Below, one piece after another: positions 7,225-29,507 of a DNA stretch of 64,000 nt. The stretch's first letter is position 1, and every line of letters begins with the position of its first letter. The stretch covers positions 4,999 through 68,998 of the forward strand of contig CALRDV010000005.1 of NCBI GenBank assembly GCA_943355005.1, in the 5' to 3' direction. The stretch is from Patescibacteria group bacterium. GTDB lineage: Bacteria; Patescibacteriota; Microgenomatia; UBA1400; MFAQ01. Below the pieces are notes generated by a model. It was not told the DNA's origin, ran no database searches, and worked only from the letters and a program-made list of their open reading frames with translations. The translations under genes and the position numbers were made by a program.

Positions 7225-7691
7225 TGAAAGGCCACACCTTATTAGAGATACTTATTGTCCTCGGATTATTTACTGTTATTTTTACGGCGACATCTCTAAA
7301 TCTCTTAGGTGCTAGGTCAAAAACATCACTCGGAACTTCAGTCGACGTTCTCTTGGCCGATCTCCGCGCTCAGCAGACCAAAGCCATGAGTGGCGATACC
7401 GGAGGAGGAGGTACCAATGTCAACTTCGGAATCCATTTTCTAAGTAATTCATATGTTCTTTTCAAAAACACCTATTCTGCCTCAGATCCCTACAATTATT
7501 CGGTGAATTTAGACGATGTCAAGATTGATACTACTTTTTCCGGCTCAGAAATTATCTTTCTTAAAGGTAGTGGAGAAGTTTCGGGATACAACCCTGTCGC
7601 CAACACCATCCGTTTAACCAGCCTTAGTAGTTCCGGTAGTCCAAAGATTATCACCATTAATCGTTTCGGTGTCATTATCTCCGTCAACTAA
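7224..7691 (+). CDS. Pseudopilin or minor pilin with a prepilin-type N-terminal cleavage/methylation motif
   Basis: The N-terminus reads MKGHTLLEILIVLGLFTVIF, which matches the G-(F/H)TLLE class III signal. Confidence 0.7.
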   Translation: MKGHTLLEILIVLGLFTVIFTATSLNLLGARSKTSLGTSVDVLLADLRAQQTKAMSGDTGGGGTNVNFGIHFLSNSYVLFKNTYSASDPYNYSVNLDDVKIDTTFSGSEIIFLKGSGEVSGYNPVANTIRLTSLSSSGSPKIITINRFGVIISVN

Positions 7692-7692
7692 C

Positions 7693-9531
7693 ATGAAATT
7701 ATTCAATAAAAATCATGGTTTCTCCCTCGTCGAACTCCTCATCGCCATGGGTCTCTTGACGATTTTCATCCCCGCTCTAGTCAGTGGCCTCTCCGCCGCC
7801 AGATCAGGTAAAGTTCAGCAAGAACAAAGACTAAGCGCCATGTCCTATCTCAAAGAAGCGGAGGAAGCAGCTAGGGCAGTAAGAAATAATGATTGGGCAA
7901 ATGTCAAAACAGCGGGGACATACTACCCATCCATTTCAGGAAACACTTGGATACTAAATTCCGGCACTCAAAATATTAGCGGATTTACCAGATCAATTAT
8001 TATCAGTGATGTTTCCCGTGACTCTATCTCCGGTAATATTTCTTCGACCGGGACAGTTCCGGATCCCTCAGTCAAAAAAGTCGACATTTCGGTTTCGTGG
8101 ACCACGCCTTTTTATTCGCATGTGGACTCCACCTTTTATGTGAGCCGATATTTATCAAATACTCCACTTGCCGGCTCCGGAACTATTCAGCCTTTTTCCG
8201 GAAATGGTAATTGGTGTACTCCTTCACTGTCCATTACAAACGTAGATTTATCAGGTCAAGGTGTCCCAAACGCTGTATCCGCGATTTCCGGTCAAGTATT
8301 TGCGGCCACCGGAGCGAACGCTTCCGGAGTCTCTTTTGCAGATGTATTACTCACCGATCCGGCCTATCCTTCACCCCCGGTCTCAACCCTAAACGGTACA
8401 TTCAATGGCTTCAAAACCAATGGCATTTTTGGTGATAGTAGTTACGCATATATCACGACCGATACGAATTCCAAAGAAGTTGTCATTATCGATTTGGCAC
8501 ACAAGGACATCAGTAACAAATTTCTTTTGGCCGGCGTTTTTGACGCTCCTGGGAATACCAGTGCCAAGGGCATCTTTGTAACCGCGACCTACGGATATAT
8601 GACTACGGGAAGCAAGATGTTCAACTTTAATAAAGTAGGTTCAAGTCTTCCCTTGGATAATAACGGAGTCGCGCTCGATGGACTCGGTCAGAGGATTAGT
8701 GTGGTTGGGAACTACGCCTATGTTGCTACAGATTCAACCGGAAACCAGTTAAACATCATCGATATCAGCAATCCGTCGGATCTTAAGAAAGTCGATACCG
8801 TTCATGTCGATGGAAAAGCCGGAAAAGATGTCTTCATTAATACCGCCGGAACTCGAGCATATTTGGTAACTGCCTCATCTGCTTCTCAGCGGGAATTCTT
8901 CATTATTAATATCGACAAAACCAGTGCCAACTACAAACAAATAATTAGCTCTTACGACACAAGCGGTATGAATCCTACAGGGGTTTCCGTTGTTACACCA
9001 AAGAAAGGTATTATCGTCGGTATCGGTGGACTTGAATACCAGGTAATCGATTTAAGCGACGAAACCAATATTCCTTCCACGCCATGTGGAACTCTAAATA
9101 TTGATTCTGGTATTAACGGTGTTTCTTCCATATTGACGACCAGCACTCCTCCAAGAGCCTATTCATATATCATCACCAGCGTCCACTCGAAAGAACTTCA
9201 AATCATTGAAGGGGGAAGTGGAGGGGGAGGTGGCACAGGAATGTTCGAATCAACCACTTTCGACGCCGGTCACGACGTCGCCTTTAACTACTTCACTGCG
9301 ACTGCGGATCCAAATTTGACCTACAAATTCTCTATCAAACATGGCATAAGTGGCAGCTGTGCAGGAGTCACTTTCTCCGACAGTGATTACAATTTACTTC
9401 CCATAGGTAGTCTTCCTTTAACTACGATAGGAGCAGGCTATACCAATCCGGGTCAGTGTATGCGCTATCGGGTCACTAATTCCGCCTCCTCCGCAGTCAG
9501 TTATTCTCTAACTATCAATTACTCACCATGA
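7693..9531 (+). CDS. Giant pilin-like protein (about 610 aa) with a prepilin N-terminus
   Basis: The N-terminus MKLFNKNHGFSLVELLIAMGLLTIFIP matches the G-FSLVE motif. A large S/T/G-rich extracellular region contains a GGSGGGGGTG tract. The upstream extension of the ORF to 7669 is probably not translated. Confidence 0.65.
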   Translation: MKLFNKNHGFSLVELLIAMGLLTIFIPALVSGLSAARSGKVQQEQRLSAMSYLKEAEEAARAVRNNDWANVKTAGTYYPSISGNTWILNSGTQNISGFTRSIIISDVSRDSISGNISSTGTVPDPSVKKVDISVSWTTPFYSHVDSTFYVSRYLSNTPLAGSGTIQPFSGNGNWCTPSLSITNVDLSGQGVPNAVSAISGQVFAATGANASGVSFADVLLTDPAYPSPPVSTLNGTFNGFKTNGIFGDSSYAYITTDTNSKEVVIIDLAHKDISNKFLLAGVFDAPGNTSAKGIFVTATYGYMTTGSKMFNFNKVGSSLPLDNNGVALDGLGQRISVVGNYAYVATDSTGNQLNIIDISNPSDLKKVDTVHVDGKAGKDVFINTAGTRAYLVTASSASQREFFIINIDKTSANYKQIISSYDTSGMNPTGVSVVTPKKGIIVGIGGLEYQVIDLSDETNIPSTPCGTLNIDSGINGVSSILTTSTPPRAYSYIITSVHSKELQIIEGGSGGGGGTGMFESTTFDAGHDVAFNYFTATADPNLTYKFSIKHGISGSCAGVTFSDSDYNLLPIGSLPLTTIGAGYTNPGQCMRYRVTNSASSAVSYSLTINYSP

Positions 9532-10031
9532 AAATAAATTCTAAAAATCATCGTGGTTTGCCTCGCCATCAGGCGGGATTTTCGATTTTGGAACTTCTGA
9601 TTTACATGGGAGTATCCGCTTTTTTACTTGGTTCATTGACTCAGATATTTGTACTAATCAGTAGGCTTAGATTAGACACTCAAGCCTCTTCAGAGCTCCA
9701 GCAAGATGGTATGTTCCTGTTATCCAGGATGAGTTATGATTTGGCCCGCTCAGGTACCATCACTACACCTGCTCTTGGCTCACAAGGAGCCATCCTACAG
9801 ACAGATATGATTAAGTATTCCCTGGACGCTAACAATCACATTCAAATAACTGATTTGTCCGGCTCAGATATGATTTCCGGTTATGACACTACGGTTTCGG
9901 GTCTAAACTTCTTGCACCTTAAGAGTGGCAGTAAAGATAACGTCCAAGTTTCTTTTACTCTTACCAGCAAAGTGGTCAAGGCCGGAGGGTCGCAGACTAA
10001 ACAATTTATTACAACTATTGGTACAAGGTAA
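9528..10031 (+). CDS. Pseudopilin with a prepilin-type N-terminus
   Basis: The N-terminus reads ...HQAGFSILELLIYMGVSAFLLGSL, which matches the G-FSILE motif. Confidence 0.65.
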   Translation: MKINSKNHRGLPRHQAGFSILELLIYMGVSAFLLGSLTQIFVLISRLRLDTQASSELQQDGMFLLSRMSYDLARSGTITTPALGSQGAILQTDMIKYSLDANNHIQITDLSGSDMISGYDTTVSGLNFLHLKSGSKDNVQVSFTLTSKVVKAGGSQTKQFITTIGTR

Positions 10032-10032
10032 T

Positions 10033-10419
10033 ATGAAAAGGTCAACTCAAAAAGGAAACGTCTTAATTACTCTGATAATTTTTATGTTGATTTCTACCAT
10101 AGTTATCTCAGCGGCGGTTGCTATGATAATTACCAATACCGGCGCAATATCCGGTATCGAGCAAGGCCAGATGGCTTACCAAGCAGCCGAAAGTGGAGTG
10201 GAAGAAGCTGTAATTCAGCTATTAAGAAACCCCAATTTCTCAGGCACTGTCAGCAATATTTCTACCGGACTTTCTAAATTCACCTATACTGTCAGTGTAT
10301 CTTCGCCCAAAACCATTGATTCATATGGCTCATATTTAGGCTTCAAAAGGCATATCTATGTCACCACCTCGTATAATTCAGGACAGTTAGTGGTCAATCC
10401 TTGGCAAGAATCTTTTTAA
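10033..10419 (+). CDS. Minor pilin-like (PilX-like) protein
   Basis: The start was chosen at MKRSTQKGNVLITLIIFMLISTIVISAAV, which directly abuts the previous stop codon. It has a hydrophobic N-terminal helix but no canonical G-F-xLxE motif. Confidence 0.4.
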   Translation: MKRSTQKGNVLITLIIFMLISTIVISAAVAMIITNTGAISGIEQGQMAYQAAESGVEEAVIQLLRNPNFSGTVSNISTGLSKFTYTVSVSSPKTIDSYGSYLGFKRHIYVTTSYNSGQLVVNPWQESF

Positions 10420-10432
10420 TTACAAAAAAACC

Positions 10433-11443
10433 ATGCCCAAAAAAAGAAACTCCATCATTAAAATAGAAGGTGATAGATTAATCTTCGAAAATTCGGATTT
10501 ATCCAAGTCTCTCAAATTTAATTATCCTGCGGATACAGTTAGAGATTTAGAAATACTTGATGCCGAGAAGTTGGAAGAGGGGATTCAAACTTTCATCACC
10601 AAGAATGAAATTTCTGCCGGTTCTCTGCTCTTGGTACTTTCCAAAAATATTACCTTCCAAAAATCAATTTCTTCTTCAAACATAGAACAAGAAAGAACAG
10701 CTTTCTTGGACAGTATACCTTTCGAAACCATCTCTTCCAAAATTTACGGGAAGAAGGATAGTCAGGTAATTGTCGCTACCAATCGAGATCTTGTTCAGAA
10801 ATTCCAATCAATATTTGTTCACCTAGGTTTTCAGGTTGAGGGTGTCGTTCCTGAAGAATTATTACCGGAAAATTACTCGGATCTGTACCTAAAAAAATCT
10901 ACATCCTATTCTCATCTCAGTATGGCAGGTAACTCCGGCTACAAAGAAACCAAAATCAATAAAATCGCCAAGAAAGAGATAGAAGCCAGCAAAAATCTGC
11001 GCTTACTCCTTACCCTCTTTGGATTTTCTTTCCTCGTCCTAGGTGGCGCCTACTACTACTCCCACCGAGAGTACGATTCGGCAAAAGTCTCAGAGGTTGT
11101 CATTCCCGACCTGATCGGGAATCCATCCGGAATACCTACAAACACATTATCCGACCCTTCCACCTTATCGGTCAAGATTTTATATCGTCCACAAGAGGAA
11201 TTATCAGCCAAGGAGTTGCAAAGTATTTTATGGTCAAGTGGTTTCAAGAATACCGATTTAGTTGCCACCACTTCCGCTGGCCTGAGCACAAATCTCTCTT
11301 TGTCGCCGAACCTTCCTCCAGACCTAATTCAAAAGATTCAAGGAGAACTCTCCAAAATCGACAAAAACTACACTGTTGACTCACTAGTTTCGGAAAATTC
11401 GGAAGTAACGATTTTACTTGCTAAATCAAGCAAAAAGCGATAA
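10433..11443 (+). CDS. Hypothetical pilus-assembly membrane protein (PilM/PilN-like by position)
   Basis: It has a single central TM helix (LRLLLTLFGFSFLVLGGAYYY) and sits between pseudopilin genes and the major pilin gene. I recognised no diagnostic motifs. Confidence 0.35.
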   Translation: MPKKRNSIIKIEGDRLIFENSDLSKSLKFNYPADTVRDLEILDAEKLEEGIQTFITKNEISAGSLLLVLSKNITFQKSISSSNIEQERTAFLDSIPFETISSKIYGKKDSQVIVATNRDLVQKFQSIFVHLGFQVEGVVPEELLPENYSDLYLKKSTSYSHLSMAGNSGYKETKINKIAKKEIEASKNLRLLLTLFGFSFLVLGGAYYYSHREYDSAKVSEVVIPDLIGNPSGIPTNTLSDPSTLSVKILYRPQEELSAKELQSILWSSGFKNTDLVATTSAGLSTNLSLSPNLPPDLIQKIQGELSKIDKNYTVDSLVSENSEVTILLAKSSKKR

Positions 11444-11490
11444 TCCTAAATTTCACTATCAAAGTACATCAAAACATATCGGCAAAACTA

Positions 11491-11519
11491 TTGACATCTA
11501 TAGCTATAAGGTGTTTAAT
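11491..11519 (+). promoter_or_regulatory. Sigma70-like promoter for the major pilin gene
   Basis: TTGACA (11491-11496), a 17-bp spacer and TTTAAT (11514-11519) lie about 30 bp upstream of the pilin start codon. Confidence 0.45.
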
Positions 11520-11549
11520 CAGGGCATTAATAATAATTAATGCAAAGTT

Positions 11550-12005
11550 ATGGCCACCAAAAATAATAACCAAAAAGGTTTCACTCTCATCGAGCTTCTC
11601 GTCGTCATGGGAATTCTCGCCGTACTATTAACCGCCGTTTTGATGGCTATAAACCCATCCAGACAATTCGCTCAAGCCAGAGATTCTCAGCGCAGAAATG
11701 ATGTCTTAGCTGTACTAGATGCCGTCCAGCAAAGTATGGCCGACAACAAAGGTGTTCTTCCTGGCAGTATCACAGCCACCCCGACCGAAATTAAGACCGG
11801 TGGAATTGACCTCTGTAGCGAACTTATGCCGAAGTACATCTCCATTCTCCCTTCAGATCCTTCCTTAAATACTAGTCTTACTGTATGTCCAGCCTCTCCG
11901 GCCACCTACGCTACCAACTACTATATTTCTAAGGACTCTGATGGTCGCGTAACCGTCACTGCTAACGGAAAAGAAATTGCCACCTCAATTTCCGTCACCC
12001 GCTAA
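11550..12005 (+). CDS. pilA: Type IV major pilin (PilA-like)
   Basis: The N-terminus MATKNNNQKGFTLIELLVVMGILAVLLTAV is a canonical G-FTLIELL prepilin peptidase site. The gene is 151 aa and is followed by a strong terminator. Confidence 0.8.
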   Translation: MATKNNNQKGFTLIELLVVMGILAVLLTAVLMAINPSRQFAQARDSQRRNDVLAVLDAVQQSMADNKGVLPGSITATPTEIKTGGIDLCSELMPKYISILPSDPSLNTSLTVCPASPATYATNYYISKDSDGRVTVTANGKEIATSISVTR

Positions 12006-12257: not shown

Positions 12258-15200
12258 ATGACATCGAAATTTACGGGCGCCATCATCGTCGATTCCTCTT
12301 TTTGGGCAAAGCCCGGTGTCCAAAACAAATGGAAAAAAGCCCTAGATAAAATAGATACGGGATACCGCATTTTTGATAAGACAAAAAATAGGTTTGAAAT
12401 CAAGAAATCTCTCGCCAAATTCCTCAATGAAACTACAGCTCAAGAAGTTTTTCTAATAGACACCACACATACATCACCCTCCGACCTTGCCACCTTCTTC
12501 AAGTCAGCTCGTCACTCAGACAACCAGCTCTTCCTCCAATCCAATCCGTCCATCACTCCATTCCACAAAATCCTCTCCAAAAACCTGCACCACGGCCATG
12601 AAGTTTTAGCCTATTCACCTCTCAAACTTCTTCCCCAATCACTTTGCTACAATCTCAAACCCTCCGACCTCTCTTTTGGCACCGATCACGCCATCATCCA
12701 TCTCGCCACTCTGATGTCTCTCTCGATACAAAAAGTCGAGACCAAAATAATATCCAAGAAACGTCACCTACTTCAATCAAGTATTTCCCATCTATCCACC
12801 CGCCTTTCACCACCACGCCCGTATCACCTTCTGGGAGATAACTCGGACAATATGCTCGGCGCCGGCATGGTCCACAGAGGAAAAACTTTCATCACTCACA
12901 CCACTTTGAAAGAGCATCACAGCGCCACAAATACTTTTACTGTTCCTCAAGCTCTCACCGGACTATTTATCTTGCTCGTCCTCATCGCTGGTGTCCTCAC
13001 TTATCCCAGGAACACCATGATTGCTTTCACAGCCGTTCTCTCCACCATATATTTTATCGATGTTCTCTTTAATCTTTTCCTGGTGGGCAAAAGTCTTCAG
13101 ACACCTCCCGAATTGAAGTTCACCCCGGAAGAAGTGGCTAGTCTGAAAGACGAAGAATTACCGATTTATACCATCCTTGTTCCTTTATTCAGAGAAGCCC
13201 TCGTCCTCCCTGGTTTTGTCGAATCAATTTCCAAGATGAACTATCCTCAATCAAAATTGGATGTGCTTCTTCTCATGGAGGAGGATGATAAAGAAACTAT
13301 AGACGTCGCCAATTCTTTAAATCTTCCCGCCTTTATCCGCCAAATCATCGTGCCTCACTCCATGCCGAAGTCCAAGCCCAAGGCCTGTAACTACGGTTTA
13401 GCTTTTGCGAAAGGGGAGTACCTCGTAATTTACGACGCCGAAGATCATCCGGATGCAGATCAGCTGAAGAAAGCCATTTTAGGATTCCGTTCTTCACCTC
13501 CGGAAGTTGCCTGTCTCCAAGCCAAGCTAAATTATCACAACGCCAATCAGAATTTACTTACCCGTTTCTTTACCGCCGAGTATTCTTTGTGGTTCGATGT
13601 TGTCCTCCCCGGCATGCAGTCCATCAATACTTCCATTCCCTTAGGTGGCACTTCCAATCATTTCCGAGTCAAAGATATTATTAAGTTCCGAGGTTGGGAC
13701 GCTTTCAATGTTACCGAAGATGCTGACTTGGGTTCTCGCCTTTTCCGCGCCGGCTACCGCACTGCCATTGTTGATTCTGTCACTTTAGAAGAAGCCAATA
13801 GTAAAGTAGGAAACTGGATTCGTCAGCGTTCTCGCTGGATCAAGGGCTACATGCAGACCTATTTAGTTCACACTCGCGATTGGCGAACTTTTTACAAAGA
13901 ACAAGGCTTGCATGCTGTTATCTTTCAGCTCTCCGTCGGCGGCAAGATTGCCTTCATGCTCATCAATCCACTTTTGTGGGTTATGACCATTTCCTACTTT
14001 GCTCTATATAAATATGTTGGACCAACCATCGAGAGTTTTTACCCAACTCCCGTTTTCTACATGGCTGCGTTTTCTCTAGTCTTTGGAAACTTCCTTTTCC
14101 TCTACTACTACATGATTGGTGTCGCCAAGCACGGACACTGGACCCTGGTCAAATGGGTTTTCCTCGTTCCTCTTTACTGGTTACTTCTTAGTCGAGCTGC
14201 CCTCAAGGCACTTTATCAATTAGTCGTAAATCCACACTATTGGGAGAAGACTGATCACGGTTTACATTTTAGTTTCTTAGCCAAGAAACAAGCCAAAGCA
14301 GAACAGAAAGCCGCCCGCAAAAATAATCACAAAGTCTCTCTCTTCTTCCTCACCGCAATTCTTAATGTTTTAAACCTCCTCCAAAAACTCACTACTCCGA
14401 AACCATCCGTCATTGCGAGTTTCGGTAAACCGAACCGAAGCAATCTCACTCCATCAAACGACAATGTCATTCCGGGCTCGACCCGGAATCCAGAATCTGT
14501 CATTGCGAGCAAAGCGAAGCAATCTAGCTCAATAGCTTCGTCATTGCGAGATTCGTACTCGAACCGAAGCAATCTCATACCATCCAGACTCACATCATCA
14601 TTCAAAAAAGCCTACTACCACCCCCAAGCCGGTAGCATCATGCTCATCATCGCTTCCGTTCTCGGCAACTTCCTAAACTTCGTCTACAGCGCCTACCTCG
14701 GCAACACCATTAGTCTCGAGCAGTTCGGTCTCATCAGTCTTTTTGGCAGCTTTCTATATCTCACTCAAATTCCAACCAGTATTTTTGGAAGTTCCGTCAC
14801 CCGCGAAAGCGCTTTCTATTTTGGTAAGGAGAAAACTCAGCCCAAACATATTTGGAAACAATTTCGTCGCTGGGGAATCTACTTCTCTCTAATTCTTACA
14901 GTTATTTGGCTTCTTTCCATTCCATTTCTCCGGTCTATCTTCAAAGGCGATTCCTTTATTCCTTTTTACATATTCTCCCCGGTCATAATTCTCGGCTTAC
15001 TTTCTTCCGTTGATAGGGGGTTCTTGAATGGCACTCTTCGTTTCAAAATCCTCGCCACCGTCGGTATCACTGAGGCCGTCATTAAACTTCTGTTTACTAT
15101 CCTTTTGGTATCCATCAATCAGAAGCAGAATGTCTATCTCGCTCTACCTCTCTCCATGGCTTTCTCTTTCTTGCTTAGTTGGTTCTTCGCCAGCAGAGTT

Positions 15201-17039
15201 CCGGAAGACAGAGTGGTTACCGAAGATAAGAAAATAAAGTTCCCTTTCAAATTCGCCGGCACAGTTATTCTAAATAAACTTTCATTTGTCGCTTTCCTGG
15301 GTCTGGATATTGTGATTGCGAAAATAATTCTTTCACCCGAGGACGCCGGTCGCTTTGCCCTGGTATCGCTAGTTGGCAAAATGGTCTATTTTTTCTCCGG
15401 GCTTACAGGCCAGTTTATTCTCCCTCTCGTAAGTAAAGAGGAAGGTGCTTCGGGTAATCCTCAAAAAATATTTAGTCAAATCTTCCTGGTCACCATTTTC
15501 TTTACTGCAGTTTCTTATCTTGGTCTTGGCGTCTTTGGCTGGCTAAGTGTACCTCTCTTATTTGGCCCCAAGATGCTCGCAGTGATTCAATACTTGCCTT
15601 TTTATCTCCTCGGCATCGCTTCGTTTACTTTGGCTATGTCCATAATTTCCTATCACCAGTCCCGCAAGAAATATTTAGTTTCCATTGCCAGTTTTGCAAT
15701 TACCCTGATTCAGCTATTCATTCTCATTCGTTATTACCAAACCTTAAAAAGTTTTACCGTCACCCTCGGTATCTTCGGCATTATCCAGTTACTTGTCGCC
15801 GGTATCATGCATCGTCTCACTCGATATTCCACTGCCATAACCCAGAATTCTTACGCCTTTTTTAATCTCTTTAAATCACAAAAGAAATCAGATAAGGCTT
15901 TCGAAGGTCAGATCCGTTTCTTGATTTTCAATTGGCGTGATACCAAACATGTCTGGGCAGGGGGTGCCGAAGTCTACGTCCAAGAGCTTGCCAAAAACTT
16001 AGTAGAGAAAGGACACCAAGTCACCATCTTCTGTGGGAATGATGGAAAGAACTTGAATTCAGAAACCATCGACGGCGTGGAGATTGTCCGAAGAGGGGGT
16101 TTCTTCACTGTCTATATCTGGGCTGCTATCTATTATCTCTTCAAATTCCAGGACAGCTTCGACATCATCATTGATTCCGAAAATGGCGTTCCCTTCTTTA
16201 CTCCTTTCTATACCCGCAGACCCAAACTTTTATTGATCTTCCATGTTCACCAAGAGTTCTTTAGGGAAAATTTAAAGTTCCCAATGCTTCAAATAGCATG
16301 CTTTATGGAAAAAGTATTAATGCCAATTTTGTATAAAAACGAGAAAGTGATGACTATTTCAGAATCATCCGTTCAAGACATATTAAAGTTAGGTATCTTC
16401 AAAAAAGAGGATATATTTGTTGTAAATCCAGGGGTAGTTGTTGAATATCCTCCAGAGGTGACACCACTAACAGAATATCCATCATTGGTATATATAGGTA
16501 GACTTAAAAAATACAAAAATGTTGACATTGCCGTCAAAGCTTTTAAGAAAGTACTTGAAAAATTCCCGGATGCAATATTCAGTATTGGTGGTCATGGGGA
16601 AAGTTTAAGTCAGCTTACAAATTTAGTTAATAAACTCGGAATTCAAAAATCTGTAAAATTACTAGGACGTGTAACAGAGCTTCAGAAATCAAAACTATAT
16701 CAAGAATCATGGGTAGCTATACAGCCGTCTTCTTTTGAAGGTTGGGGAATTACCGTTATTGAAGCAAACTTATTTGGAACACCTGTTGTAGCTTCTAACA
16801 TACATGGGTTAAGAGATTCTATTGTCGACGGGGAAACCGGGATTCTAGTCAAGTCGAAAGACTCAAGTGCCTTCGCAAGTGCCATAAATAAAATATTCGG
16901 AAACAAAAAACTTAGATTAAGAATGTCCGTCGCCGGTGTAGAGCGAGCCAAAAAATTCAACTGGTCCGAAAACACCGACATCTTCCTCTCAGCCATTCAG
17001 CGATATTACCTAGACCTCAACTACAATGAAAACAAATAA
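12258..17039 (+). CDS. 1593-aa multidomain envelope-glycan megaprotein: an N-terminal unknown domain, a processive GT2 synthase-like domain, a repeat-derived linker, a polytopic MOP/Wzx-flippase-like membrane domain and a C-terminal GT4 glycosyltransferase
   Basis: The GT2 motifs are LLMEEDD, YDAEDHPDAD, TEDADLG and QRSRWIKG. The linker at 14408-14576 consists of four palindromic repeats. A membrane domain of about 12 TM helices follows (MLIIASVLGNFLNFVYSAYLGN...). The GT4 domain carries EGWGITVIEANLFGTPVVASNIHGLRDSIVDGETG. Confidence 0.7.
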   Translation: MTSKFTGAIIVDSSFWAKPGVQNKWKKALDKIDTGYRIFDKTKNRFEIKKSLAKFLNETTAQEVFLIDTTHTSPSDLATFFKSARHSDNQLFLQSNPSITPFHKILSKNLHHGHEVLAYSPLKLLPQSLCYNLKPSDLSFGTDHAIIHLATLMSLSIQKVETKIISKKRHLLQSSISHLSTRLSPPRPYHLLGDNSDNMLGAGMVHRGKTFITHTTLKEHHSATNTFTVPQALTGLFILLVLIAGVLTYPRNTMIAFTAVLSTIYFIDVLFNLFLVGKSLQTPPELKFTPEEVASLKDEELPIYTILVPLFREALVLPGFVESISKMNYPQSKLDVLLLMEEDDKETIDVANSLNLPAFIRQIIVPHSMPKSKPKACNYGLAFAKGEYLVIYDAEDHPDADQLKKAILGFRSSPPEVACLQAKLNYHNANQNLLTRFFTAEYSLWFDVVLPGMQSINTSIPLGGTSNHFRVKDIIKFRGWDAFNVTEDADLGSRLFRAGYRTAIVDSVTLEEANSKVGNWIRQRSRWIKGYMQTYLVHTRDWRTFYKEQGLHAVIFQLSVGGKIAFMLINPLLWVMTISYFALYKYVGPTIESFYPTPVFYMAAFSLVFGNFLFLYYYMIGVAKHGHWTLVKWVFLVPLYWLLLSRAALKALYQLVVNPHYWEKTDHGLHFSFLAKKQAKAEQKAARKNNHKVSLFFLTAILNVLNLLQKLTTPKPSVIASFGKPNRSNLTPSNDNVIPGSTRNPESVIASKAKQSSSIASSLRDSYSNRSNLIPSRLTSSFKKAYYHPQAGSIMLIIASVLGNFLNFVYSAYLGNTISLEQFGLISLFGSFLYLTQIPTSIFGSSVTRESAFYFGKEKTQPKHIWKQFRRWGIYFSLILTVIWLLSIPFLRSIFKGDSFIPFYIFSPVIILGLLSSVDRGFLNGTLRFKILATVGITEAVIKLLFTILLVSINQKQNVYLALPLSMAFSFLLSWFFASRVPEDRVVTEDKKIKFPFKFAGTVILNKLSFVAFLGLDIVIAKIILSPEDAGRFALVSLVGKMVYFFSGLTGQFILPLVSKEEGASGNPQKIFSQIFLVTIFFTAVSYLGLGVFGWLSVPLLFGPKMLAVIQYLPFYLLGIASFTLAMSIISYHQSRKKYLVSIASFAITLIQLFILIRYYQTLKSFTVTLGIFGIIQLLVAGIMHRLTRYSTAITQNSYAFFNLFKSQKKSDKAFEGQIRFLIFNWRDTKHVWAGGAEVYVQELAKNLVEKGHQVTIFCGNDGKNLNSETIDGVEIVRRGGFFTVYIWAAIYYLFKFQDSFDIIIDSENGVPFFTPFYTRRPKLLLIFHVHQEFFRENLKFPMLQIACFMEKVLMPILYKNEKVMTISESSVQDILKLGIFKKEDIFVVNPGVVVEYPPEVTPLTEYPSLVYIGRLKKYKNVDIAVKAFKKVLEKFPDAIFSIGGHGESLSQLTNLVNKLGIQKSVKLLGRVTELQKSKLYQESWVAIQPSSFEGWGITVIEANLFGTPVVASNIHGLRDSIVDGETGILVKSKDSSAFASAINKIFGNKKLRLRMSVAGVERAKKFNWSENTDIFLSAIQRYYLDLNYNENK
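14408..14576 (+). repeat. Tandem cluster of four palindromic repeats (types 2, 1, 2, 2) inserted in frame in the megaprotein gene
   Basis: Copies lie at 14408-14447, 14465-14493, 14499-14527 and 14538-14576. They translate as SVIASFGKPNRSNLT...VIPGSTRNPESVIASKAKQSSSIASSLRDSYSNRSNLI. Confidence 0.85.
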
Positions 17040-22444: not shown

Positions 22445-23950
22445 ATGAATTTCAAACTTCCAAAAATAGTAATTAATCCGGCTTTGGTAATCACTCTTTT
22501 ATTAGCTATATTGCTATTGTTCTTTACCGTTAAGGGAACCAAAAAAACATATTACGACCAAAGCTTGTACGACACCTCAATGGGAAGTCCTTTTGAGTCA
22601 TCTAATAACTCCTCAAGGTATGCTTTGACTGAGGCAATAACGAACAGACTTTCCTTCATATTAACTCCAGAAGAAGCAAAATTTTCTTCTCCAGATGTCG
22701 CAAAAAAGAACAATCGTTACTTTAGTCTTTTTATGCCTGGAGTATCGGTCTTAGGCGCACCCTTGTTTTATATTGGAAAATATTTGGGGTTTCCACAACT
22801 AACTACATATTTGTTAAACGGAATTATTTCGTTAGTGTGCTTACTCTTTATTGTAAAGATTTCAAGAAAAATAGGTGCAAATAAGAACTGGTCAATTATT
22901 AGCGGATTTCTATTTATATTTTCTTCAAATGTTTGGGCGTATTCTCTTGGCTATACTCAGCATTTGCTGACCACACTGTTGGTGTTAATAGGACTCAAAA
23001 TTATACAAAACAAAATTAACGTGTTAAACAATCTCTTTCTTGGAGTTGTCTTCGGAGCCGGCTTAATGGTCGATTTACCAAACGCAATAATTCTGCTACC
23101 TATCGTCATTTATCAGATTTTGCGCCATTTTGAGGTTACATATAAAACATTTAAGATAAATTGGAAATTATTACTTCTTGCTGTTGGGGTGGTTCCTTTT
23201 ATAGCTAGTTTTATTGGTTATAATATTTTGACCACAGGTTCTCCTTTATCTCCGGCACAATTTTTAGGGAGAACTAGCGACTTTTTTGTAACACAGGAAG
23301 AAATCAACATTTATGAGGCCTCTCGTACGGAACCCAAAACTGGCATTAGTCTACCGTTTAAATCTAGAAAGCAACTGCAAGGACTTTATATTTTAATTGT
23401 TTCGAATGAAAGAGGAATCTTGTATTATTCGCCAGTCTTGATATTGGGTTTATTTGGTTTTTATATATCTTCCAAAAATAGAGGAAGTCTTAGTTTCAAT
23501 CAAGTAACTCTGGGAATAATCGGATTAAATTTATTTGTTTACGCAATGTTTGGTGATCCCTGGGGTGGCTGGTCATTTGGACCTAGGTATATGATTCCGG
23601 CAACCGCCGTCATTATGATATATTTCCCATTCTTTTTTGAATCAAAGAAATATCGAGTTTTGAAATCAATTCTGATGGTTATCTTGGCCAGTTACAGTAT
23701 TTATCTCTCTTCCTTGGGGGCACTAACCACATCTATGGTCCCACCAAAACAAGAGGCAATCTACTTTACAAATCCAATCCCATACACCCCGCAACTGAAC
23801 AAAGAATTTATTGAAACTAAAACCAGTTCTCTTTTTTACAATCTTGTTTTAAACGACAAAATATCAACACTTGCCTACTCAAGAGTTATTCTATCGCTTT
23901 GTTTGATTTATTTATTTGGCATGACTATTTACGCAAACACCCATGATTAA
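22445..23950 (+). CDS. Polytopic membrane protein, probably a GT-C-type glycosyltransferase or polymerase
   Basis: About 12 predicted TM helices, with no soluble enzymatic motifs recognised. The assignment rests on context within the glycosylation locus. Confidence 0.45.
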   Translation: MNFKLPKIVINPALVITLLLAILLLFFTVKGTKKTYYDQSLYDTSMGSPFESSNNSSRYALTEAITNRLSFILTPEEAKFSSPDVAKKNNRYFSLFMPGVSVLGAPLFYIGKYLGFPQLTTYLLNGIISLVCLLFIVKISRKIGANKNWSIISGFLFIFSSNVWAYSLGYTQHLLTTLLVLIGLKIIQNKINVLNNLFLGVVFGAGLMVDLPNAIILLPIVIYQILRHFEVTYKTFKINWKLLLLAVGVVPFIASFIGYNILTTGSPLSPAQFLGRTSDFFVTQEEINIYEASRTEPKTGISLPFKSRKQLQGLYILIVSNERGILYYSPVLILGLFGFYISSKNRGSLSFNQVTLGIIGLNLFVYAMFGDPWGGWSFGPRYMIPATAVIMIYFPFFFESKKYRVLKSILMVILASYSIYLSSLGALTTSMVPPKQEAIYFTNPIPYTPQLNKEFIETKTSSLFYNLVLNDKISTLAYSRVILSLCLIYLFGMTIYANTHD

Positions 23951-25514
23951 ATTTATTCAAAACAAATCTGTTGTCTGGTATTTGGCGATAATCTTGTCAA
24001 TCGTTTCCATCTTTACCTTCAAGCTATATCTAGACAACGGTCTGGGTCTTTCCTACAACGACGCGCGTTCACACTTGGACATTGGTCGTCGTGTGGTAGA
24101 AGGTCTTAAGCCGGGCTTAGCTCAGCTCGGCTCAGTCTGGCTACCGCTAGACCACGTCCTCATGATTCCGTTAGTTTGGAATGACTGGGCTTGGCACAGT
24201 GGTTTTGCTGGGGCGTTTTGGAACATGCTTTCTTACGTCGGTATTGGAGTCCTAATTTACAAATATTTAGAGAAGTTAAAAGTTGGTATGGTCGGCAGAC
24301 TGTTCGGAGTATTTGTCTTTGCCAGCAATCTCAATATTTTGTATCTTCAGTCTACCGCCATGACAGAACCTCTTCTTTTGTTCACCATGCTGGCAGGCTG
24401 TTACTACCTCATGATTTGGATGACGGAGGATAGATTGCTGGATCTAATCAAAGCTTCTTTCTGGGTCATGATGTCCACACTGGTACGTTACGATGGCTGG
24501 TTCCTTTTGGCCGTAGTTGCTGGTCTGGTCGCGCTCAGAACTTGGTACAAAAAGGGTTACAAAACTGCCGAAGGTACCCTCATTTTATTCTGTACTGTCG
24601 CCGCTTTTGGTGTTGTATTGTGGTTTGGTTGGAATCTTTTGATTTTCAAAGACCCTCTCTACTTTGCCTTCGGTCCTTACTCCGCCCACGCCCAGCAAGA
24701 GCAAATGCTCGCTGCGGGCGCTTTACCTACCAAAGGCAACGCCGTGCTATCTCTACAGACATATTTGTACTCCATGATCTACAACTCTATTGCCACCGTT
24801 GCTTTCTTGGGTATCATTGCCACATTTGTGCTCTGGTTTGATAAAAAGCTTGATGGGGCAGCCCGTCTTGCCTCCTCGGCTCTCTGGGCACCCTTTGGTT
24901 TCAATATCATCGCCCTCATCTTCGGCTTCTCGGTTATTTTTATTCAAGGAATTTCCGGCAATACCTGGTTCAATGTCCGCTACGGCGTCATGCTCATGCC
25001 GACGCTTGCCATCTTTATTGGGTACTTTGTACATCGTTTCAAAGATTTTCGCTGGGTCATCATTGGACTATTTATGTTTGTTTCCTTCATAGCTTTTACC
25101 AGTAACGACTCTGTCAGTATCGACGATGCTCGTGTTGGAAGCAGTCAGAAAAATGTTTCCGAAGTATCAGGTTGGCTAGAGAAGAATGCCAAAGACAAGC
25201 CGGGTTTCATTATGATTTCTGCTGCCAGCCACGACGCTATTATTTTCTCCAGTAATCTGCCAATGAAGAAGTTTATTCACGAAGGTACTGGTGCATATTG
25301 GGAAAGTGCCGCTATTGCTCCGGACCGCTGGGCCAGATGGATCGTCATGAGAACCCACGATGTGAACGACTCTACCTTTAAGTTTGTCGGTGTCGCTCCG
25401 GGATTTACCAAGTATGATTTAGTAGACAGCTATCCTTTTGCTGATATTTATCAGCTGAGAGATGAATATCTGCCGGATCTAAACACCACCCCCGTCTATG
25501 GCCGTCAAAAATAA
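23943..25514 (+). CDS. Polytopic membrane protein, GT-C-like, with a C-terminal periplasmic domain
   Basis: The N-terminal half has about 11 TM helices and the C-terminal roughly 150 aa is soluble. This architecture is typical of ArnT/PMT/AftD-like GT-C enzymes. Confidence 0.45.
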   Translation: MIKFIQNKSVVWYLAIILSIVSIFTFKLYLDNGLGLSYNDARSHLDIGRRVVEGLKPGLAQLGSVWLPLDHVLMIPLVWNDWAWHSGFAGAFWNMLSYVGIGVLIYKYLEKLKVGMVGRLFGVFVFASNLNILYLQSTAMTEPLLLFTMLAGCYYLMIWMTEDRLLDLIKASFWVMMSTLVRYDGWFLLAVVAGLVALRTWYKKGYKTAEGTLILFCTVAAFGVVLWFGWNLLIFKDPLYFAFGPYSAHAQQEQMLAAGALPTKGNAVLSLQTYLYSMIYNSIATVAFLGIIATFVLWFDKKLDGAARLASSALWAPFGFNIIALIFGFSVIFIQGISGNTWFNVRYGVMLMPTLAIFIGYFVHRFKDFRWVIIGLFMFVSFIAFTSNDSVSIDDARVGSSQKNVSEVSGWLEKNAKDKPGFIMISAASHDAIIFSSNLPMKKFIHEGTGAYWESAAIAPDRWARWIVMRTHDVNDSTFKFVGVAPGFTKYDLVDSYPFADIYQLRDEYLPDLNTTPVYGRQK

Positions 25515-26724
25515 AATCATCTTAGTCCTATTCATTTTTGCAATTTTAATCGTTGCTAGATTTTTTCAACTCTCCTTGGTTGGTGGTTCGGCTACCCCCA
25601 AACAATTTTGGTCTATCCGCTCCATCGATGTGATGAAATATAGCCGTGACTTGGCCAGGGAAAAATTAATGGATCCAAAGTTCGATGTCACCATCGAAAA
25701 TCAAATTAGCGCCATTGCTTCCACCGGCGCAAGTCATGTGGCTCTCGGAGTTCCTTACGATCATGAATTTTTACCCATTATGCGCCGCTGGGTCACTGCT
25801 ATCCGCCGGCACAATATGAAGGTATGGTTCCGTGGCAATCTCTCCGGTTGGGAAGGTTGGTTCGAATACAAAAAGATCGATCAAGAAACTCATACCGCTT
25901 GGATCAAAGACTTTATTCTCAAGAATCAAGATCTTTTTGAAGACGGCGATTTATTTTCCTCCTGTCCGGAGTGCGAGAATGGCGGAGAAGGGGACCCCCG
26001 CCAAACCGGCAAGGTCGAGCAGTATCGTCAGTTCTTAGTAAACGAAACAGACGCTGTCCGTTTTGCTATGCGCAAGATCGGTAGAGATATTCCGGAGAAC
26101 CTTCACTCCATGAACGGGGATGTAGCTAGATTAATCATGGACAAAGAAACCACCAAGAGATTGGGTGGAAATGTGGTCATCGATCATTATGTCGCCACTC
26201 CGGAAAAATTAATTTCCGATATCAGAGAAATGGCTCGGTCCTCAGGTGGCAATATTATTCTTGGCGAATTCGGTGCCCCCATTCCGGATATTCATGGCAA
26301 CATGGACGAAGCTCAGCAATCCAAGTGGGTCGAGTCTGCTCTCCGAGCCATGAGTCAGGAACCTCTGGTGGTCGGTGTCAATTACTGGACTAGCTTCGGA
26401 GGCAGTACCAAGCTCTGGAACGACGACGGAACAGCAAGGCAGGCTGTCGAGGGTGTCTCCAAATACTTCACCCCACCTCAAGCAGCCTCAAAGGTGGTTA
26501 CCTGGTTTGGCCTGCCTGTAGCCGACGCTCAGGTCTATCTGGGTACATATAGTAGTAGTACCTCAGCGGGTGGCTCATTTAGCCTCCCCAGTGTCTCTCA
26601 ATCGACCTTGGAAGTCTCCAAACCTGGCTTTGTAACCTACAAATTCCCCGTAACTTCGACCCAGAAGATTTATCTAGAGCCTACTTCTTTGTTTACCTTC
26701 CTCAAATTCTTCATTTTTTCGTAA
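25498..26724 (+). CDS. Membrane-anchored glycoside-hydrolase-like protein (clan GH-A TIM-barrel, GH5-like)
   Basis: It has an N-terminal TM anchor. NIILGEFGAP resembles the GH5 nucleophile motif (I-x-x-E-F-G), and NLSGWEGWFE may be the acid/base region. Confidence 0.4.
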   Translation: MAVKNKIILVLFIFAILIVARFFQLSLVGGSATPKQFWSIRSIDVMKYSRDLAREKLMDPKFDVTIENQISAIASTGASHVALGVPYDHEFLPIMRRWVTAIRRHNMKVWFRGNLSGWEGWFEYKKIDQETHTAWIKDFILKNQDLFEDGDLFSSCPECENGGEGDPRQTGKVEQYRQFLVNETDAVRFAMRKIGRDIPENLHSMNGDVARLIMDKETTKRLGGNVVIDHYVATPEKLISDIREMARSSGGNIILGEFGAPIPDIHGNMDEAQQSKWVESALRAMSQEPLVVGVNYWTSFGGSTKLWNDDGTARQAVEGVSKYFTPPQAASKVVTWFGLPVADAQVYLGTYSSSTSAGGSFSLPSVSQSTLEVSKPGFVTYKFPVTSTQKIYLEPTSLFTFLKFFIFS

Positions 26725-26795
26725 TAGGGTTATCCACATCCATAGTATTGAATAATTGGCGGTAAAAGCGTAAAATTGGCACATTCAATAATTGA

Positions 26796-27419
26796 ATGAC
26801 CAAAATGACCACAAAACAAATTGTTAGTATTGTTACCACCTTCGTTTTTACTGCGATAGTTTTAGTCAGTCCCATAACAGCCAAAGCCCAACTCTCTTAC
26901 CCCAATTTTCCCAGCTGTCTGAATCCGAGCGGCACTGTAAAGGTTATCAATGACTCAGGTTCTCACGGAGTTCCCGGAGATACTAGTAATTACACCGGCA
27001 AAGATATTGTTTATACAAATTCGGATGGCAATTACACCCAGTGTCTCTGTACTTCCAATGGAGATGGTATTCAGACCAATTGGTGGAAGACCGGCTCCAT
27101 TACCGAAGAAGAAACAAATACTCTAAAAGCTGACGGCTGGCTCTATATTCCCGATGGTAGTCTTTGGGGATTAGAGAAAGACTCCTACATGGCCAAGAAT
27201 TCCAAATATGCTTGTACTTCCAATACCGAATCCGGTGGTGGCTCTAGTAATAACAGTTCAAGTAATAGTTCTTCATCCAATGGTTCTGTCCAAGGCACTT
27301 CTACTACCCGCTTTGGTCAAGTCCTGGGACTAGCCACTACAGGAACACTTCCTGCTGTCATTGGCTATATTACTCTCGGCGCCATCGCTCTGATCATCTC
27401 CCGAAGATTAACTAAATAA
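26796..27419 (+). CDS. Secreted surface protein with a C-terminal LAxTG-type sorting signal
   Basis: It has a signal peptide and an S/N-rich stalk (GGGSSNNSSSNSSSSNGS). The C-terminus reads LATTG, then TLPAVIGYITLGAIALII (hydrophobic), then SRRLTK (a positively charged tail). Confidence 0.55.
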   Translation: MTKMTTKQIVSIVTTFVFTAIVLVSPITAKAQLSYPNFPSCLNPSGTVKVINDSGSHGVPGDTSNYTGKDIVYTNSDGNYTQCLCTSNGDGIQTNWWKTGSITEEETNTLKADGWLYIPDGSLWGLEKDSYMAKNSKYACTSNTESGGGSSNNSSSNSSSSNGSVQGTSTTRFGQVLGLATTGTLPAVIGYITLGAIALIISRRLTK

Positions 27420-27428
27420 TAAACACTT

Positions 27429-27461
27429 TGTCATTGCGAGTGTACTCACGTGGCAATCTAG
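27429..27461 (+). repeat. Palindromic repeat, type 2 (TGTCATTGCGAGTGTACTCACGTGGCAATCTAG), intergenic
   Basis: It has the same termini as the other type 2 copies. Confidence 0.8.
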
Positions 27462-27464
27462 ATT

Positions 27465-27995
27465 ATGTTTAAAAAATTCCTCTCTGCTCTATTTTTTATC
27501 TCCGGGATATTCTTGATCTCTCTCGGTTTTGTGGATTTGGCCAAAAGACAAGGAATCATTACCCCGGAGGAAGTCATACCATCACCTTCGTTGGCTACCG
27601 AAGAGCCTCTCTTGATTTTTCTTCCCAAAGTCGGCATCAAACTCCCAATCTATCCGACGGAAATAAAAGACCGGAAATGGCCAACCACCGAAAGCGGTGT
27701 GTCATATATCAAAGATTCAGGTAGGCTCGGTGTTTCAGGTAATCTAGTGATGTACGGCCACAACTGGAAAAACCTTCTAGGCAGTCTCAAGAATTCCAAA
27801 GTTGGCGATACTCTGGACATTTTCTCCAATCAAAACAAAAATCATTCGTACGTCATCAAGTACGTCGCCACAGTAGACGCCAAAGACGTCAGTATTCTCG
27901 CCGATACCTCATCTGAAAGAATCACTCTCTACACCTGTACCGGGCTCCTAGACTCACAGCGCTTCGTCGTCGTCGCCGAAAGAATCAAAAGCTAA
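27465..27995 (+). CDS. Sortase (class E-like transpeptidase)
   Basis: It has an N-terminal TM anchor, NLVMYGHNW (catalytic His), ITLYTCTG (TLxTC catalytic Cys) and RFVVVAERI (conserved Arg). Confidence 0.7.
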   Translation: MFKKFLSALFFISGIFLISLGFVDLAKRQGIITPEEVIPSPSLATEEPLLIFLPKVGIKLPIYPTEIKDRKWPTTESGVSYIKDSGRLGVSGNLVMYGHNWKNLLGSLKNSKVGDTLDIFSNQNKNHSYVIKYVATVDAKDVSILADTSSERITLYTCTGLLDSQRFVVVAERIKS

Positions 27996-28023
27996 ACGTT
28001 TTTCCCCGCGCTATACTTATCTC

Positions 28024-28608
28024 ATGAACAAACTTTTAGGTCTAAGTCTGCTCGTCATTCTCATTGTTACTTTAGCAAAGCAATTCACTCCAGCTTTTCA
28101 GCAGGAAGTGGGTTACAAGATGAAGAAGGTTGAAACATTTTCAAAGACCGAGATTCGAGCCATTACCCCCGTAGATACCGATTTTGGAATTGTCATTCCC
28201 AAAATCGACGCCAACTCCGCGATCGTCAAAGATGTCGATCCTTACGATGAGCTTGCTTACACTCAAGCCTTTACTGCGGGTATCGCCCATGTCAAAGGCT
28301 CTGTGATGCCGGGCCAAAAGGGCAATATTTTTCTCTTCGCCCAGAACTCAGCCGATTCTTTTAAGTCTTCCAAATTTAATCAAACATTTTATCTCCTAAA
28401 CAAAATGGAAGCAGGGGATGAGATCTATCTATACTACGGCAGGAAAAAATATGTCTACATCGTGACGGACAAGAAAATTGTTGCCAGAAGCACCGTCGAG
28501 TATCTTTCGGATGATAAGTCGGCCGAAACCATTACCCTGATGACCACCTACCCGCCTGCCACTTCCCTGATGCGGGTCCTCGTCCACGCCACCCTTCAGA
28601 AGATTTAG
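28024..28608 (+). CDS. Sortase-fold paralogue, probably catalytically inactive
   Basis: It is homologous in length and layout to the upstream sortase, but the TLxTC box reads ITLMTTYPP (no Cys) and the His box reads NIFLFAQNS (no His). Confidence 0.45.
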   Translation: MNKLLGLSLLVILIVTLAKQFTPAFQQEVGYKMKKVETFSKTEIRAITPVDTDFGIVIPKIDANSAIVKDVDPYDELAYTQAFTAGIAHVKGSVMPGQKGNIFLFAQNSADSFKSSKFNQTFYLLNKMEAGDEIYLYYGRKKYVYIVTDKKIVARSTVEYLSDDKSAETITLMTTYPPATSLMRVLVHATLQKI

Positions 28609-29165
28609 AATACCCCGGTAAACGCTTTCCAGTCGGTAATGATGGTCAATACTATGTACGCAATAACACCTGGAGTCACCACTAAGCTCTCAAACCACTC
28701 TCCTGTTTTGATTCTCCATGACTTTGTCGGTGGTAGTCCAAATTTATATTTCAGAGGATAGAGTAGGGGAAGACCCTCCTCCGTCACACCGTCGGCGCAA
28801 AGGTGAGAGATATACCCAATCATCAAGGATATCGACACAATCTGAAAATTAATAAATGTGCCATTGAAAATTATGGGTAGTAGCCAATAAACTATTTTGT
28901 CTACAAGAAAGATACCAAGTAATGAGTGAGTCAGCCCGCGGTGAGATAAAAAAAGTTCATTGAATATTTTTCCCACAGACCTACCAAATGGGAGCATGCC
29001 CCACAATCTATTCGTAGCCTGATCTAAGTCGGGCAGTAGCCCTCCCGCCGTATTGGCGACGAGCGCCGTCATAATTGTAGCCAGCCCCAGGTTTGTTTGA
29101 GGGTAATAAACATTCGCCGTCAGCAGCCCGGCAAAGGCTATCATGTTGTGAGTTCTTCCCAGCAT
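28605..29165 (-). CDS. Membrane-bound metal-dependent hydrolase (DUF457/YdjM-like)
   Basis: This is one of only three real minus-strand genes. It has four or five TM helices and His-containing motifs (GRTHNM, GLTHSLLG, HLCADG) typical of this family. Confidence 0.55.
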   Translation of the reverse strand: MLGRTHNMIAFAGLLTANVYYPQTNLGLATIMTALVANTAGGLLPDLDQATNRLWGMLPFGRSVGKIFNELFLSHRGLTHSLLGIFLVDKIVYWLLPIIFNGTFINFQIVSISLMIGYISHLCADGVTEEGLPLLYPLKYKFGLPPTKSWRIKTGEWFESLVVTPGVIAYIVLTIITDWKAFTGVF

Positions 29166-29201
29166 TTATTCAGTATATCTAAAAATAGATATAATCGGAC
29201 T

Positions 29202-29507
29202 ATGGTCAGTCTAAAAAAACTTCAAAAACAAATCTACGCAAACAAAATTGAGAAAGGTTTCAACACCACCGATATCTATAAAGAATTTTGTCTTATCCAC
29301 GAAGAAGTTTCTGAGGCTTGCCGGGCTCACTACAAAAAAGAATATACAGTCGGAGAAGAATTAGCAGATGTTGCCATCTATTTACTCGGTCTATCGGAAA
29401 TATTAAATATCAATCTCGAAAAAGAAATCCTCAGAAAGGTTGCTAAAAACAAAAAGCGCGAATACAAAAGAGTGAATGGAGTGATGCGAAGAATTAAGGA
29501 CGCTTAG
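29202..29507 (+). CDS. MazG-like nucleotide pyrophosphohydrolase (small all-alpha NTP-PPase)
   Basis: EELADVAIYLLGLSEILNINLEKEI matches the MazG EExxD/metal-binding helix. The start was chosen at MVSLKK because the longer ORF beginning at 29097 overlaps the antisense gene. Confidence 0.55.
   Translation: MVSLKKLQKQIYANKIEKGFNTTDIYKEFCLIHEEVSEACRAHYKKEYTVGEELADVAIYLLGLSEILNINLEKEILRKVAKNKKREYKRVNGVMRRIKDA

Follow-up and report, generated by a model that had tools for sequence, protein, structure and literature searches.

A cysteine-free sortase-fold protein under purifying selection beside an intact LAxTG-linked sortase in a Patescibacteria genome

Sortases, much used as tools in protein engineering, are the textbook example of cysteine transpeptidases. 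Among them, class C sortases carry a DP(W/F/Y) lid over the active site and polymerise pilins through the lysine of the pilin motif. Class E sortases are actinobacterial and have LAxTG as their hallmark signal, and their S3 subsite (Y229 of SrtE1, in the beta3/beta4 loop) reads the Pro or Ala of the sorting signal (PMC5148588). The nucleophile mutant C184A of SaSrtA bound LPETG in crystals (PMC5578623), and a sortase family has been described as near-ubiquitous in Microgenomates (PMC6744442). Here we analyse a stretch of 64,000 nucleotides from a Patescibacteria group bacterium (contig CALRDV010000005.1 of assembly GCA_943355005.1, positions 4,999 to 68,998; hereafter the window), in which genes for a small secreted protein ending in an LATTG signal, for an intact sortase (Srt1) and for a second sortase-fold protein (Srt2) follow one another. 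An earlier note on this DNA had read the three as a single sortase module in which an active sortase is accompanied by a catalytically degenerate paralogue. To judge from its residues, Srt2 is a member of the sortase fold and not a canonical cysteine transpeptidase, and its origin, its conservation and its relation to Srt1 are the subject of this report.

The sortase-fold protein Srt2

The three open reading frames (ORFs) of the earlier note are present, encode 207, 176 and 194 amino acids (aa) and all lie on the + strand, on which residue coordinates are given below for each protein. Srt2 (28024..28608, 194 aa) matches the Pfam Sortase domain (PF04203) with 71.1 bits (E 9e-20), against a gathering score of 26.6 bits. 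Its AlphaFold2 (AF2) model (pLDDT 88.9, pTM 0.83) begins with a helix at residues 2-40, the N-terminal transmembrane (TM) segment, and continues into a predicted eight-stranded beta-barrel. Foldseek returned 138 matches in the PDB at E <=0.001, the top 50 of which are all sortases, and the best structural matches are class C sortases and C. diphtheriae SrtA (E 3.5e-11). That Srt2 keeps the fold and the TM anchor, as had been proposed, is therefore well supported.

In place of the H/C/R triad of MEROPS family C60, Srt2 has Q107 in the His column (FLFAQNS, 28342-44), T175 in the Cys column (TLMTTYPP, 28546-48) and the retained R184 (28573-75), and the whole protein contains no Cys. A pairwise alignment with a PDB entry, S. 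mutans SrtA, had placed the His column at D111, an assignment overruled in favour of Q107 by a 57-sequence family alignment together with the GNxxxxxH motif, which is common to the Srt1 and Srt2 alignments and marks the His column. The His is missing under either alignment, and the replacement of Cys by Thr and the loss of His in Srt2 were both correctly called. The protein thus combines two marks of a pseudoenzyme, the absence of essential catalytic residues and, as described below, purifying selection.

Against the profile of its own family Srt2 scores 274 bits, inside the range of the intact members (228-293). This family has at least 373 species-level matches among GTDB representatives, all of them Patescibacteria, and 4067 representatives at E <=1e-3 in a search of 1.84 billion representatives, a size and spread that fit the near-ubiquitous Microgenomates family (PMC6744442). 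Its loci in relatives were examined under L-numbers (L001, L088 and so on), and its proteins in the representative library carry P-numbers. The loci hold 162 family ORFs with an intact H/C/R triad (84 + 78), whose consensus reads FLFSHSS ... TLTLMTCWPPGT..KRL, and a conserved DPY (residues 72-74 in the window protein), considered as a candidate class C lid motif, stands in the beta2/H1 loop of the family. Thr at the Cys column occurs in these loci only in the window, L088, L089, L001/L008, L004/L009/L096 (Collierbacteria GW2011_GWB1_44_6) and L038/L091/L095 (Collierbacteria GWC2_44_18). These are six protein lineages, the window with Q/T/R and the five others with H/T/R, and they form a monophyletic clade on a long stem in a neighbour-joining tree.

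Sister to the Thr clade stands an H/C/R clade, and among its members is L001_6622, whose gene directly follows the Thr copy in L001. Each of the six Thr-clade proteins has no Cys at all, and each sister sequence has exactly one. The intact paralogue of Srt2 is accordingly the family-mate that stands in tandem with the Thr copy in L001/L008. Srt1, with which Srt2 shares 25% identity over 92 residues, belongs to a separate sortase lineage, each of the two being confined to Patescibacteria, and the pairing of Srt1 and Srt2 as paralogues does not hold in any recent sense. A tblastn search of the window returned neither an H/C/R copy nor traces of one, and the window was also found to lack a giant LPxTG protein. 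The synteny of the downstream YdjM, MazG-like and CAP genes marks the window Srt2 as the positional orthologue. A scan of JGI metagenomes for further Thr members yielded only the two known Collierbacteria, and among the 1.84 billion representatives searched none was Thr-like (top match 191 bits).

Because dS is saturated, dN/dS by NG86/YN00 is unusable for both sortases, and the raw proportions of nonsynonymous and synonymous differences (pN and pS) were used instead. Across all pairs of the Thr clade pS is 0.64-0.93 (saturated) and pN 0.13-0.26, so that purifying selection, which the earlier note had asked to see in relatives, is present and Srt2 is no decaying pseudogene. When the window is compared with L088, Srt2 has a pN of 0.127, next to 0.096 in Srt1, 0.111 in the substrate and 0.100 in the upstream gene, and its constraint is only a little weaker than that of the genes around it. 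The idea of a conserved degenerate copy survives in part, as the loss of Cys is clade-wide but that of His is confined to the window, five other Thr lineages keeping the residue.

Members of the Thr clade lie 26% further from 75 outgroup sequences than those of the sister clade (mean distance 1.05 versus 0.83), and diversity within the two clades is nearly the same (0.51 versus 0.48), a combination that points to a burst of substitutions along the stem and to renewed constraint thereafter. They keep 36-41 of 48 family-invariant positions (37 in the window), against about 97% in intact members. At the nucleophile site all four Thr codons are in use across the clade (ACC, ACA, ACG and ACT), which indicates that Thr itself is selected. 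Arg184 is kept in six of six Thr lineages and His107 (CAC/CAT) in five of six; the CAG codon of Q107 in the window is one step from CAC/CAT. Thirteen residues are fixed in the Thr clade and present at <=5% in the rest of the family, and eight of them fall at or next to positions 90, 107, 175 and 184: V90; N108, S112, K114 and S115 after His107; T175; and M183 and V185 flanking Arg184. The beta3 motif GVAHAKG aligns with GAGTMKN of S. mutans and GVSFAEE of SaSrtA, by which position 90 (28291-93) would correspond to A104 of SaSrtA and Y229 of SrtE1, in the S3 subsite.

In the parent family the usual upstream neighbour is a 1,500-2,000-aa surface protein whose C-terminus consists of [EQ]VLGASTELP[AS]TGA, a TM helix and a basic tail; in some loci a ~330-aa protein separates it from the sortase. 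The giant proteins beside lone Thr copies lack the LP of LPxTG and read ENDTG (L038) and TTDTN (L009), whereas that of L008, which has both a Thr and an H/C/R copy, keeps LPDTG. Loss of LP where the Thr copy stands alone is consistent with a changed pocket. In two of these giants (L009 2461-6960 and L038 2903-6979) a second copy of GVLGATT[DE] lies ~30 residues upstream of the degenerate motif.

Srt2 stems from the housekeeping, class-C-like sortase family of Patescibacteria, whose members usually have an H/C/R triad and are usually encoded directly after a giant LPATG adhesin. In the simplest history a member was duplicated in tandem in a Collierbacteria-like ancestor, after which one copy diverged through a burst of changes centred on the active site, including Cys175 to Thr, Ala90 to Val and residues flanking His107 and Arg184, and then came under purifying selection. 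Of this ancestry, and of the purifying selection, we are highly confident.

A few other members of the Srt2 family lack the Cys and keep His and Arg, with Gly (two), Ala, Leu or Ser (AGC) at the site. The Gly, Ala and Leu variants (P0138, P0202, P0185 and P0192) are unverified singletons, and the Ser variant (P0007 / L090 24-596), which nests in the H/C/R sister clade and is followed by a YdjM gene in L090, comes from a single 1.5-kb contig and is likewise treated as unverified; P0007, P0138 and P0185 each lie on a single short contig, where sequencing error is possible. Together they suggest recurrent loss of the nucleophile in the family. Many third-party metagenome-assembled genomes (MAGs) with a Srt2-family locus (L008, L013, L014, L018-L024 and others) are titled 'uncultured Pseudomonadales', 'Gammaproteobacteria' or 'Bdellovibrionales', labels that are probably wrong for Patescibacteria-specific loci.

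Srt1 and its LATTG substrate

The first of the three genes (26796..27419, +) encodes a 207-aa secreted protein composed of a signal peptide, a ~100-aa core rich in Cys and Trp, a stalk rich in Ser, Asn and Gly, and a sorting signal at its extreme C-terminus (27330..27416). The signal consists of LATTG (aa 179-183, 27330-27344), a 19-residue hydrophobic segment (27345-27401) and RRLTK (27402-27416), and residues 185-206 form a C-terminal helix in the AF2 model. The protein has 368 detectable homologues, in Microgenomates, and in 117 of the best 120 of them LA[TASNFD]TG stands at the same place (LATTG in 41, LAATG in 38, LASTG in 29), so that LATTG is no chance match and the tripartite signal is as complete as had been claimed. 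Four Cys and several Trp are invariant in the core, which is modelled with pLDDT >90 next to a disordered stalk; a PDB search with the modelled core gave no match and a Pfam search of the protein no domain. Wherever the context is known, the homologue is encoded directly 5' of a Srt1-type sortase gene, and the LATTG protein is the substrate of Srt1.

Srt1 (27465..27995, +, 176 aa) is an intact sortase of the Candidate Phyla Radiation (CPR), to which it is specific. It matches Pfam Sortase with 66.1 bits (E 3e-18), and H99 (27759-61), C158 (27936-38) and R166 (27960-62) are each invariant in 66 of 66 family members, which bears out the intact triad of the earlier reading. The proposed link with class E stands for the signal, which is of the LAxTG kind, but not for the enzyme, since Srt1 falls below every class cut-off of NCBIfam, the best being class D (33.5 bits versus 165), and scores 14.1 bits against a cut-off of 160 for class_E_sortase (NF033747). 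As Srt1 is not class E by sequence, its use of LAxTG looks convergent with that of the actinobacterial enzymes. In a motif alignment I82 (Leu in 56/66) would take the position equivalent to A104 of SaSrtA, and the adjacent Y81 is Y, F or W in 63 of the 66 family members. Srt1 is the dedicated sortase of a small secreted protein tagged with LAxTG, presumably cutting after the Thr of LATTG and anchoring the protein to the cell wall, as standard sortase chemistry would have it.

Srt1 closes a five-gene cluster (22445-27995) of two ~500-aa membrane proteins, a ~408-aa protein, the ~200-aa substrate and the sortase. The first gene (22445..23950, +) encodes a 501-aa membrane protein without a Pfam match, whose collinear homologues are found in L094 (35%, E 3e-65) and L093 (29%, E 1e-61); the second (23943..25514, +) encodes a 523-aa polytopic membrane protein with 62-69% identity to the gene at the same position in L093/L094 and no significant match in a Pfam search. 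The third (25498..26724, +) encodes a 408-aa protein with 55-71% identity to its orthologues in L177, L093 and L094, whose sole Pfam trace is a weak CarboxypepD_reg match at the C-terminus and whose orthologue in L088 sits upstream of the substrate gene. L093 and L094 contain the whole cluster, with homologous genes in collinear order. The system is widespread in Microgenomates, conserves its LAxTG signal and has a cargo without a known fold, and its origin appears to be independent of the actinobacterial class E sortases.

Neither L093 nor L094 has a Srt2-like gene, and the Srt1 cluster also occurs without Srt2 in L092 and L177; in L092, YdjM and CAP come immediately after Srt1, an arrangement equal to that of the window minus Srt2. 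Srt1 and Srt2 are adjacent only in the window and in L088, where Srt2 is 76% identical and the gene order the same. In sample SRR22388202 the Srt1 module (L177) and the Thr sortase (L089) lie on separate contigs with different neighbours. Of the single module that had been proposed, the substrate and Srt1 do belong together, but Srt2 is no regular part of it, and the best explanation is that two independent surface-display systems happen to lie side by side in the lineage of the window.

The 46-nucleotide (nt) spacer between the substrate and Srt1 genes (27420-27464) contains an imperfect inverted repeat (cattgcgagtg ... cacgtggcaat), seen by eye, which might damp read-through and thereby set the ratio of substrate to sortase. 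In L093 an exosortase EpsH-family protein (PF09721, 6784-7692) is encoded three genes downstream of Srt1 on a CPR contig, so that sortase-type and exosortase-type enzymes share one neighbourhood there. At 3662-4393 (+) the window encodes a protein of collagen triple-helix repeats with a conserved C-terminal domain, homologous (30%, E 3e-32) to the gene directly after Srt1 in L093 (5581-6189), which hints at a further surface protein linked to the Srt1 cluster.

Function of Srt2

With Cys and His gone and no other Cys in the protein, sequence and established mechanism together exclude canonical sortase chemistry for the window Srt2, which most likely performs no thioester transpeptidation. We favour, with a probability of roughly 60%, the reading that it is a membrane-anchored, non-catalytic sortase-fold protein, a pseudo-sortase. 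Such a protein would probably bind C-terminal segments resembling sorting signals, or a partner sortase, without cleaving them, and we prefer this putative role because sortases engineered to lack the Cys retain both their fold and the binding of their signals. Several points weigh on the other side. Thr175 is invariant through four codons, Arg184 through six of six lineages and His107 through five of six, and as a purely dead site would drift, the conserved pocket must still do something, which may be chemistry. No gene neighbour is constant across the Thr clade and any binding partner is hypothetical, the genomes that seem to have a Thr copy only are known from incomplete MAGs and from the matches listed in the scans, and position 90 was matched to the S3 subsite by sequence alignment.

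An active Thr clade with a switched nucleophile is the alternative that survives best, though we consider it unlikely. Thr175 would attack with His107 as base and Arg184 at the oxyanion, forming an O-acyl ester on an altered motif, and the enzyme would be a transpeptidase or a releasing hydrolase, of which the Gln107 protein of the window would be a weakened or secondarily inactivated form. Synonymous turnover of a strictly conserved Thr, retention of His and Arg in the face of saturated synonymous divergence, and the concentration of changes in the active site, the putative S3 subsite included, all fit it. So does the shift of the neighbouring giants from LPDTG to ENDTG and TTDTN, in which the D-T core is kept, and the change from Cys (TGY) to Thr (ACN) takes two steps, plausibly through Ser, itself a nucleophile, for which the unverified AGC variant P0007 of the sister clade offers a parallel. 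However, the window protein, which lacks the His, evolves no faster than its His-bearing sister (it is no more diverged from the outgroups than L088), so that the selected function has no need of His. A secondary alcohol is, moreover, a poor nucleophile in an active site tuned to a thiolate, the searchable full-text literature describes no sortase with a hydroxyl nucleophile, and other Cys-less members, unverified singletons as they are, carry Gly, Ala or Leu, which are no nucleophiles at all. The stronger form of this idea, in which the H/T/R clade comprises the first natural Thr-nucleophile sortases, working through an ester acyl-enzyme on xxDTG/N-like rather than LPxTG motifs, with the window protein as a His-less derivative, seems to us more doubtful still; if true, it would bring new chemistry to the sortase fold and an altered partitioning between transpeptidation and hydrolysis.

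It is improbable, by a further degree, that Srt2 serves the adjacent Srt1 as an obligate non-catalytic subunit or regulator, specific to the LATTG module. The tight co-directional order of the substrate, Srt1 and Srt2 genes (gaps of 46 and 28 nt), between which no terminator-like site was found on the + strand, and the repetition of that order in L088 are what one would expect of such a partner. Yet the four Srt1 clusters without Srt2, the separate contigs of L089 and L177, and the Thr copies of L008, L009 and L038, which adjoin giant adhesins and not Srt1, mark the adjacency as lineage-specific and make a role dedicated to Srt1 unlikely. Of the functions offered for a degenerate sortase in the earlier note, a non-catalytic one is hence retained as most likely for the window protein, and its dedication to the Srt1 module is judged unlikely. 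Finally, decay or a sequencing or assembly artefact, which the loss of two of three catalytic residues, the 37 of 48 family-invariant positions and the rarity of Thr copies might suggest, is essentially excluded by an intact frame of 193-197 aa in seven independent assemblies, a pN far under the saturated pS, a family score within the intact range, a confident predicted fold and Thr codons that differ among assemblies, which rules out a shared error.

Neighbouring genes and comparison with known systems

Downstream of Srt2 and convergent with it, with stop codons overlapping by 4 nt, lies a gene for a YdjM-family membrane protein (28605..29165, -; Pfam YdjM 89.8 bits), which is a synteny marker outside the sortase system. 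As called, the MazG-like ORF that comes next (29097-29507, +; 136 aa from a TTG start) shares 69 nt with the 5' end of ydjM; its orthologues begin at the internal MVSLKKLQ (aa 36), and the real gene is probably ~100 aa long and free of the overlap. The type IV pilus genes next to which the sortases had been placed lie at ~4.5-12 kb, at least 14.8 kb away and beyond a glycosyltransferase cluster, and in none of the relatives' loci do pilus genes adjoin the sortases. This pilus set (4562-12005, +) comprises a PilB-like ATPase (T2SSE), a PilC-like platform protein (T2SSF) and several pilins with N-methyl motifs, among which is a 620-aa pilin-like protein that has an LVIVD repeat. Between 16000 and 24000 the GC content falls to 0.34-0.36, versus 0.42-0.46 in the flanks. 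Successive GT2 and GT4 glycosyltransferases are encoded there, together with a polysaccharide deacetylase and a short-chain dehydrogenase, and this stretch may be a horizontally acquired island for glycan synthesis. An unusually large ORF of 1593 aa (12258-17039, +), considered as the missing giant adhesin (L001 has one of 1591 aa), proved to be a fusion of GT2 domains (~aa 300-610) with a GT4/GT1 module (aa 1235-1560) and has no sorting signal.

The known enzymes closest to Srt2 are the class C sortases, which together with C. diphtheriae SrtA (6bwe, 2xwg, 3rbj, 6ixz) are the best structural matches to its model. They are also the best profile matches of its family, with which they share the motif TL(M/L)TC(W/Y)PxGxxxxRLLV, and the parent family likewise adjoins a SpaA-domain surface protein with LPxTG. 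It differs from them in its low score with NCBIfam class_C_sortase (NF033745), 42.9 bits where the cut-off is 160, in having a single giant adhesin rather than a pilin set as partner and in its Patescibacteria hosts, and Srt2 itself has Q/T/R instead of H/C/R. Srt1 resembles the class E sortases (S. coelicolor SrtE1, PDB 5cuw, and T. fusca SrtE) in the LAxTG of its substrate and perhaps, by the motif alignment, in an aromatic residue next to the S3 position. Apart from its low class E score, Srt1 differs in having no class E structure among its PDB sequence matches at E <=1, in a length of 176 aa, probably too short to accommodate the 21-residue beta6/beta7 insertion of SrtE1, and in being a CPR rather than an actinobacterial protein.

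Engineered inactive sortases (SaSrtA C184A/C184S and SpySrtA C208A, the latter held in the PDB as complexes with LPATA and LPATS, 7s51 and 7s4o) demonstrate that the fold and the recognition of the signal survive replacement of the nucleophile. These, however, are laboratory mutants, whereas Srt2 represents a natural lineage with a remodelled pocket or compensating changes, kept by selection. In the full-text literature searched we found no description of a natural, selection-maintained Cys-less or pseudo-sortase, and Srt2 is a rare candidate for a sortase that has become non-catalytic or changed its chemistry in nature. If it is a signal-binding pseudo-sortase, sortases join the enzyme families that have yielded regulatory pseudoenzymes, and Srt2 offers a handle on how the display of giant adhesins is controlled in ultra-small CPR cells. 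As in pseudokinases and inactive rhomboids, a duplicate has lost its catalytic residues, kept its fold and been retained by purifying selection; Srt2 departs from these in having exchanged its nucleophile for a strictly conserved residue that could act as a nucleophile in turn, and if that Thr is catalytic, it would represent new chemistry on a well-studied fold.

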